Below, one piece after another: positions 6,224 through 13,736 of a stretch of 64,000 nt of DNA (positions are counted from its first letter, which is position 1; every line of letters starts with the position of its first letter). The stretch comes from Octopus sinensis. Taxonomy: Eukaryota. The stretch lies in assembly GCF_006345805.1 (NCBI RefSeq), contig NC_043010.1:10602001-10666000 (forward strand), written 5' to 3'. The translations under genes were made by a program, and so were the position numbers. A model generated the notes under the pieces. The model searched no databases, was not told the DNA's origin, and saw only the letters and a list, made by a program, of their open reading frames with translations.

Positions 6224-6407
6224 AATATATATATATATGTATCTATATATATGTATGTATGTATGTATCTATCTATCTATCTATATCTATCTATCTATCT
6301 ATCTATCTATATATATATATATATATATATTAGGTGGTCATGAATGTTCTTTTGGAATTTTTAATTTTGTTTTTTTTTAATTTTAGTATTTTTAAATTCA
6401 TTTTCAT

Positions 6408-7157
6408 TAAATTCGGTATGTGGTAAGGCAATTCGTTGCTAAACCCTTTATTGCTTAGTATTACTTAAATTTTCCTCGAATGAGGCTTTTACATGCCGAA
6501 GACTACTTGTGTAATTGATAATTATTCCAAATTAATTAATTTCACCCTTCATTATTACGGATAACATATTTTATCTCAGTAGATGACCACAGCATCTTGT
6601 TTTGGCTACACGCGGGTGGGAAGGGGCTGGTGACACAATCTTTTCATTCACGCATTGAATTTGGTGATACTAGTTGCGGATTCTAGCTCGCTCTGATACT
6701 GAGTTGAGTTGGTGCCTTCTAGTATCTCAAAATTCAATATATAATCATTTATGATTATAGTATTCTACGCTGAAGAGAAAAGAAGTTTTTGGTAAGATAG
6801 AATTATTTAATATTTAATTCTTATGCTTTCCTAAAAACTTGATTTCGAAACGTACGTCCGTAGATAACTTAAAATGTATGATAGATTGCCGTCAATTCAT
6901 TCTCTCTTACCTGTTTGTGTCTGCCTTCCAATTGCTGTTTTTACTGAGATCTCCCTTTTTAGTAGAAGAAATAGCTATAACTCTTTGACTGCTATTTCTA
7001 AATTCGGTATGTGGTAAGGCAATTCGTTGCTAAACCCTTTATTGCTTAGTATTACTTAAATTTTCCTCGAATGAGGCTTTTACATGCCGAAGACTACTTG
7101 GTGTAATTGATAATTATTCCAAATTAATTAATTTCACCCTTCATTATTACGGATAAC
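6408..7157 (+). mobile_element. Hammerhead-bearing non-coding element with terminal direct repeat (Penelope-like or retrozyme-like)
   Basis: 6408-6565 is repeated at 6999-7157 (period 591); contains the ribozyme at 6764-6864; ends in a TA tract; related copy at 9372-9717. Confidence 0.7.
6764..6864 (+). ncRNA. Type I hammerhead ribozyme, intact core
   Basis: Stem I tctacg/cgtaga; CTGAAGA 6770-6776; long stem II (gaaa/tttc, aagttttt/aaaaactt, gaatta/taattc); GAAA 6847-6850; CGTACG; GUC cleavage after 6858. Confidence 0.85.
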
Positions 7158-7183
7158 TATATATATATATATATATAATGAAT

Positions 7184-7249
7184 AGTAATAATGTGTTTTG
7201 AATGGCACAACAATGCATTTTTCTGTGCCATTCAAAACACATTATTACT
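7184..7249. repeat. Perfect 26-bp inverted repeat with 14-nt loop
   Basis: agtaataatgtgttttgaatggcaca (7184-7209) pairs with tgtgccattcaaaacacattattact (7224-7249). Confidence 0.9.
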
Positions 7250-7830: not shown

Positions 7831-7834
7831 CATG

Positions 7835-8133
7835 TGAAGGTGCAATGGCCCAGTGGTTAGGGCAGCGGACTCGCGGTCGTAGGATCACGGTTTCGATTCC
7901 CAGACCAGACATTGTTAGTGTTTATTGAGCGAAAACACCTAAAAGCTCCAAGATGCTCTGTCAGGGGGTGGCCATCCCTGCTGTACACTTTCGCCACAAC
8001 TTTCTCTCACTCTTTCTCCTGTTGGCCTGCTCGCTTAGCCAGCAGGGTGGCATCATTTGAAGGCTAAAACAATGCGAACGCATTGTGACCAGTGATGTGT
8101 AGCAACATCTGATGGTCTGGTCGGTCACGTGAT
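7835..8133 (+). mobile_element. tRNA-derived SINE, family B, tail type 2
   Basis: tRNA-like head (TGGCCCAGTGGTTAG...GTTTCGATTCC), shared body, tail ggcctgctcgcttag...tcacgtgat; tail alone also at 51586-51695. Confidence 0.85.
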
Positions 8134-8689: not shown

Positions 8690-8822
8690 TTTTTGCTATG
8701 AATATATGTGTGTGTGTGTGTGTTTGTATGTGTCTGTGTATATATATATATATGTGTGTGTGTGTGTATATGTATATATATGTATATATGTGTGTGTGTG
8801 TATATATATATATATATAATGT

Positions 8823-9198
8823 GGAGGCGCAATGGCCCAGTGGTTAGGGCAGCGGACTCGCGGTCGTAGGATCGCGGTTTCGATTCCCAGACCGGGCGTT
8901 GTGAGCGAAAACACCTAAAGCTCCACGCAGCTCCGGCAGGGGGTGGTGGTGATCCCTGCTGTACTCTTTCACCACAACTTTCTCTCACTCTTACTTCCTG
9001 TTACTGTTGTATCTGTATTTCAAGGGGCCAGCCTTGTCACTCTCTGTGTCACGCTGAATATCCCCGAGAACTATGTTAAGGGTACACGTGTCTGTGGAGT
9101 GCTCAGCCACTTACACGTTAATTTCATGAGCAGGCTGTTCCGTTGATTCAGATCAACCGGAACCCTCGTCGTCGTAACCGACGGAGTGCTTCAATCCA
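8823..9198 (+). mobile_element. tRNA-derived SINE, family B, tail type 1
   Basis: Near-identical to 20468-20849 and 33710-34097. Confidence 0.9.
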
Positions 9199-9371: not shown

Positions 9372-9611
9372 ATACTAAGCAATAAGGGTTTAGCAACGAG
9401 TTGCCTTACCACATACCGAATTTAGAAATAGCAGTCAAAGGGTTATAGCTATTTCTTCTACTAAAAAGGGAGATCTCAGTAAAAACAGCATTTGCTGTTT
9501 TTACTGAGATCTCCCTTTTTAGTAGAAGAAATAGCTATAACCCTTTGACTGCTATTTCTAAATTCGGTATGTGGTAAGGCAACTCGTTGCTAAACCCTTA
9601 TTGCTTAGTAT
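9372..9611. repeat. Perfect palindrome, arms about 119 bp, 2-nt spacer
   Basis: 9372-9490 is the reverse complement of 9493-9611; the sequence is the terminal module of the 6408-7157 element. Confidence 0.9.
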
Positions 9612-9716
9612 TACTTAAATTTTCCTCGAATGAGGCTTTTACATGCCGAAGACTACTTGGTGTAATTGATAATTTTTCCAAATTAATTAATTTCACCCTT
9701 CATTATTACGGATAAC

Positions 9717-9748
<32 letters not shown>

Positions 9749-13406: not shown

Positions 13407-13460
13407 TATACAACCTCTTTTGTATCTACCCCGTTGATGTTTGGGAATTCTCTGATGTTT

Positions 13461-13548
13461 TTTCGGCTGACGAGTACGAGCCATCTGTATTCACTGCATT
13501 TTTTGTAGCTTATTAAGGATGTCCTCGTACGAAACGATCGTACCGAGA
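13461..13548 (+). ncRNA. Type I hammerhead ribozyme, intact core
   Basis: Stem I tttcgg/ccgaga; CTGACGA 13467-13473; stem II gtacgag/ctcgtac plus catc/gatg; GAAA 13531-13534; CGATCG; GUA cleavage after 13542. Confidence 0.85.
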
Positions 13549-13736
13549 TTTTAATCCATTCTTGTTGCTTTTTTCCTATTTGTAATCACCCCACTTGTCG
13601 TATGATTAACACCATATAGATTTCCGGTGCATCCTAGTTAAGGACCATATTCATGTGAATTCTTTAGAATTCACTTGAATCTCAATTACTTAACCGTATA
13701 TATATATACATACATGTATATACATATATACATATA

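Follow-up and report, generated by a model that had tools for sequence, protein, structure and literature searches.

A hammerhead-bearing repeat family in TA microsatellites of Octopus sinensis: a likely non-LTR retrozyme with paired 3' ends

Metazoan non-LTR retrozymes, in the portions of the two sources available to us (PMC7229834; 10.64898/2026.07.22.740005), are non-coding tandem repeats of low GC with one type I hammerhead per unit, which range from monomers to multimers, are predicted to fold into a self-paired circle that leaves the ribozyme unmasked, and share their genomes with Penelope-like elements (PLEs). The octopus family described here is alike in all these respects. Its unit of ~592-600 nt exceeds the 170-400 nt of PMC7229834 but lies inside the 51-972 bp range of 10.64898/2026.07.22.740005; its stem II spans 70 nt, compared with the canonical 4 bp, and the unit is known from sequence alone. 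A published hypothesis (PMC7229834, Discussion) holds that retrozyme circles serve as templates for PLE reverse transcriptase (RT); according to the accessible part of 10.64898/2026.07.22.740005, the mechanism is still to be worked out. The retrozyme class itself is already known; our additions are start sites that come in pairs, arrays of near-clonal units and a single array in which edit-like changes repeat. Fixed paired 3' ends and shared edits are not described in the available portions of these metazoan retrozyme papers. A literature search, with most subscription papers and retrozyme-paper supplements outside it, returned no description of this family, of retrozyme ends paired at two sites (A and B below) or of edits repeated across units.

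EN+ PLEs that carry a tail and an inverted pseudo-LTR (pLTR) are also close. As far as the excerpts of PMC11167929, PMC3846280 and PMC8557442 describe them, they share head-to-head arms, a one-arm extension, two internal RT starts, AT-rich or (TA)n targets, 5' microhomology and a hammerhead in the repeat, whereas the octopus unit has no ORF, its extension measures ~105 nt instead of 30-40 nt, and the whole unit is repeated. The PLE tail is described there as an extension at the end of one inverted pLTR (PMC3846280, PMC8557442) and in vitro experiments tied it to a pair of internal RT starts that operate on both target strands (PMC11167929). With the dimeric type I hammerheads of PLE, newt or schistosome type, as given in the available text of PMC4209133, the octopus motif has in common a 6-bp helix I, a 1-2-bp helix III with palindromic loop and the G10.1-C11.1 pair, but its helix II is much longer, a loop 1-loop 2 contact was not identified and Rfam models miss it. 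Plant LTR retrozymes are likewise non-autonomous and ribozyme-bearing, with a terminal direct repeat; in the accessible descriptions (PMC7229834; 10.64898/2026.07.22.740005) they differ in carrying a type III hammerhead in each LTR, along with PBS/PPT and a TSD of 4 bp. We rejected a plant-type LTR retrozyme, given a hammerhead that is type I, single and outside a terminal redundancy of variable length.

The insertion in the window and its hammerhead

The window is a 64,000-nt stretch of the Octopus sinensis genome (GCF_006345805.1, NC_043010.1, forward-strand positions 10,602,001 to 10,666,000); its features are collected in Table 1. The preliminary description had reported an intact GUC hammerhead with a 6-bp stem I and a multi-segment stem II of 70 nt, lying between two direct repeats, and the letters confirm both the motif and the repeats, which are identical except for one G. 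It had further proposed a unit of 591 nt. This holds for the spacing of the repeats, and the total of 750 nt is 1.27 such units, but monomers measured from cut to cut in genomic arrays are 592-593 or 597-601 nt long; the value of 591 nt is particular to the window copy or its assembly, because this copy is without single bases present in other copies. A copy of 1.27 turns overlaps itself, and this overlap is the direct repeat; the length of the repeat varies from copy to copy with the 5' end.

Table 1. Features of the window insertion and its surroundings (positions in the window)
Feature	Position	Strand	Remarks
Type I hammerhead motif, intact	6764-6864	+	GUC triplet
Stem I	6764-6769 with 6859-6864	+	TCTACG pairs with CGTAGA, 6 bp
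Hammerhead core CTGAAGA	6770-6776	+	CUGAAGA as RNA
Stem II	6777-6846	+	70 nt; G10.1-C11.1 closing pair; three helical segments
Core GAAA	6847-6850	+	
Stem III	6850-6857	+	A-U + C-G, 2 bp, GUAC loop; palindrome ACGTACGT
GUC triplet	6856-6858	+	predicted cut after C6858 (6858/6859)
Insertion, likely retrozyme	6408-7157	+	750 nt = 1.27 turns of ~592-nt unit; variable 5' end, 3' end at site B
Terminal redundancy, first copy	6408-6565	+	
Terminal redundancy, second copy	6999-7157	+	one extra G
9-bp hairpin then box	6967-6999	+	conserved in four related non-coding families, ~55 nt 5' of site A
3'-end site A	7042-7061	+	unit positions 44-63, mode 54 = 7052
3'-end site B	7146-7157	+	unit positions 148-162; site used by window copy
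(TA)n target	7158-7177	.	abuts 3' end of insertion
6-nt microhomology, 5' junction	6408-6413	+	common to insertion and interrupted neighboring repeat
End of older repeat	6329-6407	+	~81% to other copies; cut at 5' junction
Second insertion, head-to-head, AB	9372-9717	.	minus arm 9372-9494 ends at site A; plus arm 9489-9717 at site B

At the 5' junction, the six letters of microhomology are the ones that come next in 10 of 11 other copies of the interrupted repeat. The remainder of that repeat is absent from the window; its other copies then run into what we take to be a mariner-like frame. A target-site duplication of any kind would be hidden because of the (TA)n flanks. The second insertion has (TA)n on both sides and is too short to hold the ribozyme. 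No tRNA was found within the window, and its positions 7832-8017 and 8819-8995 hold two copies of what is presumably a SINE with a tRNA-like head. Just 3' of the main insertion lies a near-perfect 66-nt palindrome (7184-7249), with part of another repeat after it. A further type I hammerhead (13461-13548, with a 57-nt stem II and a GUA triplet) sits in an element at ~13411-13697 of an unrelated repeat family, which likewise ends on (TA)n and has relatives at loci L053 and L165. One retrozyme copy elsewhere (L023:660-720) has its 5' end fused directly to sequence of that family, a possible template switch between two ribozyme RNAs.

Neither the hammerhead nor the unit is a chance occurrence, because the 21-mer of the ribozyme core has 806 exact genomic copies and its reversed control none. 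The local fold gave z = -2.74, with 0 of 200 shuffles equally stable. Rfam reported no hammerhead at the gathering threshold or at E<=10, probably because of the long stem II, a trait not unique to the retrozyme unit, since PLE-like families of the same genome have stems II of ~55 nt. In fold predictions the catalytic conformation lies 1.1 kcal/mol above the minimum-energy fold and stem III has a pairing probability of only 0.03-0.04 in the monomer; the 8-nt palindrome and a second copy are predicted to form a duplex of -9.8 kcal/mol. Short palindromic helix III motifs are described as acting as dimers in the available text of PMC4209133. Having a single ribozyme, the window copy cannot release a monomer alone, although multi-unit arrays elsewhere could.

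The repeat family, its fold and its ends

The repeat is a young, non-coding family present at hundreds of places, in TA microsatellites, in a genome of 2.7 Gb that is rich in them. With the 750-nt element as query, 1098 candidates were obtained, and the 40 that were scored contained at least 128 matches, mostly 97-99% identical; a degenerate 29-mer for the 3' box has 4,532 copies across this and close sister families (control, 0). The longest ATG frame in the unit is 36 aa, and across 70 loci no long frame, a PLE frame included, adjoins the unit as a coding body. There is no fixed LTR pair and no RT plus GIY-YIG ORF between pLTRs, as an autonomous PLE would have. Both tandem and inverted arrays occur, the longest one seen having 9.2 units (L282). 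The modal core and stems are found in 96 of 117 tallied units, and most others are one letter off. The element stretch is present in 20 of 24 sequence entries from eight studies, all assembled contigs and none on record as RNA. Contigs of eight runs were inspected, a form of data that is blind to ends, strand and level. A few contig pieces show clustered A>G on either strand; strains or alleles can look alike, and these pieces were not used as evidence.

Folded as a circle, the genomic monomer has a predicted energy of -156 kcal/mol with stems I and II formed, compared with -119 +/- 6 for 30 shuffles (z = -6.2), and the opposite strand reaches -127 kcal/mol; the predicted circle would thus be highly self-paired. 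A young sister family of 582 nt, 88% identical, with A and B ends, arrays of at least 7 units and 2276 candidates (L198:1616-2197, L182-L211, L268-L279), gave a circle fold z of -4.2. Between the two families, 14 predicted pairs are broken against a null of 24.7 +/- 3.1 (2000 randomizations), and 5 changes are double-sided against a null of 1.4, with stem I and the base of stem II containing one each. The 12 core positions deviate in 0 of 985 cases against 402 of 43,731 elsewhere, a count inflated by the selection of 45 loci on a 21-mer that holds 6 of the 12 positions, with gap-near columns masked. The sister core carries U4C in 93 of 98 tallied motifs, no core having been found in the other 5; in the accessible part of PMC3088659, this change lowers in vitro activity yet permits viroid infectivity. 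The hairpin and the box after it, also found in older relatives, form a candidate RT-recognition element. Distant non-coding relatives with hairpin and 3' box occur at L081, L100 (~546-nt unit), L040:7400-7830 (3696 candidates), L171 and L115, with stems II of ~30-60 nt where the ribozyme is present.

The preliminary description expected other copies to have permuted ends. This is true of the 5' ends, which scatter over the unit, but 3' ends are fixed at two sites away from the cut. We mapped 96 arms in 61 loci, one pair of which was later found to be a duplicate: 55 arms end at site A, 37 at site B, which lies ~105 nt further 3', and 4 elsewhere, and 89 of the 96 abut (TA)n. Roughly one insertion in two is head-to-head. 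Among 45 loci picked by the ribozyme 21-mer, with no selection on ends, the 24 inverted pairs comprise 19 AB, 1 AA, 1 BB and 3 other (AB pairing 19/21, p = 2.2e-4), and the single arms end at A in 18 cases, at B in 3 and elsewhere in 1. The loci found with the 750-nt query, which is biased towards B, gave AB in 21 of 23 pairs with one contig-edge locus left out; the sister family gave AB in 8 of 11 pairs and other combinations in 3, again with one locus left out. In the fold prediction, site B coincides with a loop and site A with the edge of one, at unpaired probabilities of ~0.5-0.9. By analogy, the use of one site per arm in head-to-head insertions matches the Penelope tail signature, and the one-armed tail, fixed 3' ends, variable 5' ends and microsatellite target are all features of a non-autonomous element mobilized by PLEs. 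On the features that can be tested, the element is likely a non-LTR retrozyme.

Mobilization, template and competing readings

Our results are best explained by a model in which the window copy is a non-LTR retrozyme, pasted into (TA)n by PLE enzymes copying a circular monomer RNA, to which we give a probability of roughly 0.78. Multi-unit arrays would very probably yield transcripts that are cleaved after every GUC, probably in dimeric form via the palindromic stem III, and it is likely that the monomers are then ligated into ~592-nt circles. A PLE RT/GIY-YIG protein would, with good probability, nick (TA)n and begin cDNA synthesis at an internal position of the RNA, site A serving one target strand and site B the other. 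Somewhat less securely, the RT would continue past the ligated cut site, making as many as nine turns, and stop at random, with the 5' end joining by microhomology or to the other arm; the window copy would be a 1.27-turn product started at site B. We count against this model the weak stem III of the monomer and the failure of 110 PLE-bearing loci, sampled from some PLE families, to yield a partner element. In the portions of the sources available to us, 8 of 9 predicted Xenopus retrozymes showed no in vitro cleavage (10.64898/2026.07.22.740005), and purified PLE used uncut RNA as its main template and inserted hammerhead mutants normally (PMC11167929), which likewise counts against it.

Two of these observations lend weight to an alternative that we consider unlikely, in which a PLE-mobilized non-autonomous element is copied from the uncut linear multimer of an array, the ribozyme being slow, protein-dependent or a passenger and no circle being needed. 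Such a template agrees with the uncut RNA that was the main substrate of purified PLE (PMC11167929, as excerpted) and with the weakness of stem III in the monomer, and the arms do run across several intact cleavage sites. In line with one template per insertion, as in the favored model, near-full units differ by only 0.42% within one orientation (102 pairs) and 0.38% across orientations (38 pairs), compared with 1.70% between loci (10,738 pairs). Homogeneous parents would also give homogeneous daughters: clonal arrays could be copied from the transcripts of parent arrays that were uniform beforehand, or could have expanded locally. However, a linear multimer, when copied, can leave arrays no longer than they were, whereas 9.2 units occur, and the core and the fold are conserved.

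In the array at L067, seven private A>G changes, of which three are adjacent, recur together with one T>C in all 3-4 covering units, and L282 has two private variants repeated in nine units. None of the seven A>G sites at L067 has a 5' G, consistent with the 5'-neighbor preference of ADAR. Because the L067 array has its start at unit position 80 and its end at 48, crossover could not have generated it out of one edited unit; any form capable of expanding would already need nearly two copies per position, all with the same seven rare A>G, and independent editing of each unit would not give identical changes. The simplest reading of L067 is repeated passage around one edited monomer. It is one array among 84 loci, and 20 further loci held no comparable cluster. 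A>G accounts for 11 of 36 shared private variants versus 9 of 134, an excess to which L067 by itself contributes 7 of the 11 (4/28 without it); T>C is nearly as common among the shared variants (8/36) and dominates those of the sister family (5/8). At L279 (the same array as L203), three private T>C are found on both arms, which could be antisense-RNA editing or variants of the parent. A cleaved linear monomer as main template was rejected, since 0 of 96 3' ends fall within 10 nt of the cut. Five of 96 5' ends lie 2-3 nt from it, and 5' ends are not enriched there in a genome-wide junction count (3 versus 2 at a matched control 20 nt away). Back-junction reads cannot separate circles from tandems, because a circle junction has the same letters as a genomic tandem.

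The preliminary description had offered RT around a circular or tandem RNA, or Penelope pLTR formation, as the source of the tandem structure. Tandem and inverted arrays and Penelope-type ends fit this proposal, but no examined copy is the pLTR of a coding element. Among 110 PLE-bearing loci, a sample of some PLE families in two PLE-like groups, none carries the unit or its 3' module as a pLTR. BLAST and nhmmer matches in these loci proved on reading to be separate non-coding insertions (L081, L100, L102, L115, L171, L178, L212); those at L090 and L103 were classified by their coordinates alone. Following a loose contig end brought up a single unrelated locus, in which nothing matched the unit, and a PDB search gave no match.

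Candidate enzyme sources are present, as young elements whose long frames are intact occur in the genome. In one frame of 811 aa, RVT_1 scores above cut-off (E = 2e-7); it also has a DKG motif, a linker of CxxC type and, at the C terminus, a weak match to GIY-YIG, features like those of Neptune-type PLEs in the available description (PMC8557442). The young RT plus GIY-YIG family to which it belongs ends on (TA)n at two sites ~42 nt apart, the modal end offsets taking 12 and 11 of 33 ends. A young, high-copy RT plus GIY-YIG element (L180:184-2619; 28,828 candidates) has in its 3' region a hammerhead-like motif with an altered 5' core, and the 3' regions at L113, L114 and L111 belong to coding PLE-like elements with a 3' hammerhead and U4C core. 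The other families with hammerheads are ones that we take to be PLE-like from their motifs.

That the unit is instead the pLTR of an autonomous PLE, its copies being truncations and stutters, we judge very improbable. Coding PLE-like elements of this genome do have 3'-region hammerheads with ~55-nt stems II, sometimes with U4C, and retrozymes match pLTRs in Xenopus according to the accessible part of 10.64898/2026.07.22.740005. Yet no PLE frame adjoins the unit in the 70 loci, the ends of PLE frames in the 110 loci gave no match, and the arms, which contain as many as nine repeats of the unit, do not run on into a coding body. The family may nonetheless descend from a pLTR that is extinct or lay outside the sample. 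Finally, satellite spread at the DNA level (by unequal crossover or circular DNA, with the ribozyme a relic) is disfavored and the least credible reading: tandem arrays and within-array homogeneity are satellite traits too, but dispersed insertions, strand-specific fixed 3' ends, random 5' ends, A and B pairing, the (TA)n target and a kept RNA structure all go against it.

Meaning for the family

The genomic footprints of this family, namely fixed paired start sites, clonal arrays and, in one array, repeated edit-like changes, offer a test of the circle-template hypothesis, and for PLE assays in vitro the 592-nt unit is a small substrate whose start sites are already mapped. On balance, and by a small margin over even odds, we favor regarding the arrays as a genomic record of a Penelope-type RNP that would roll round one circular RNA, prime the two target strands at two loops and write A-to-I edits into every unit. 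Editing would in this way feed the evolution of the family, and the sister family would even have spread with a fixed U4C core.
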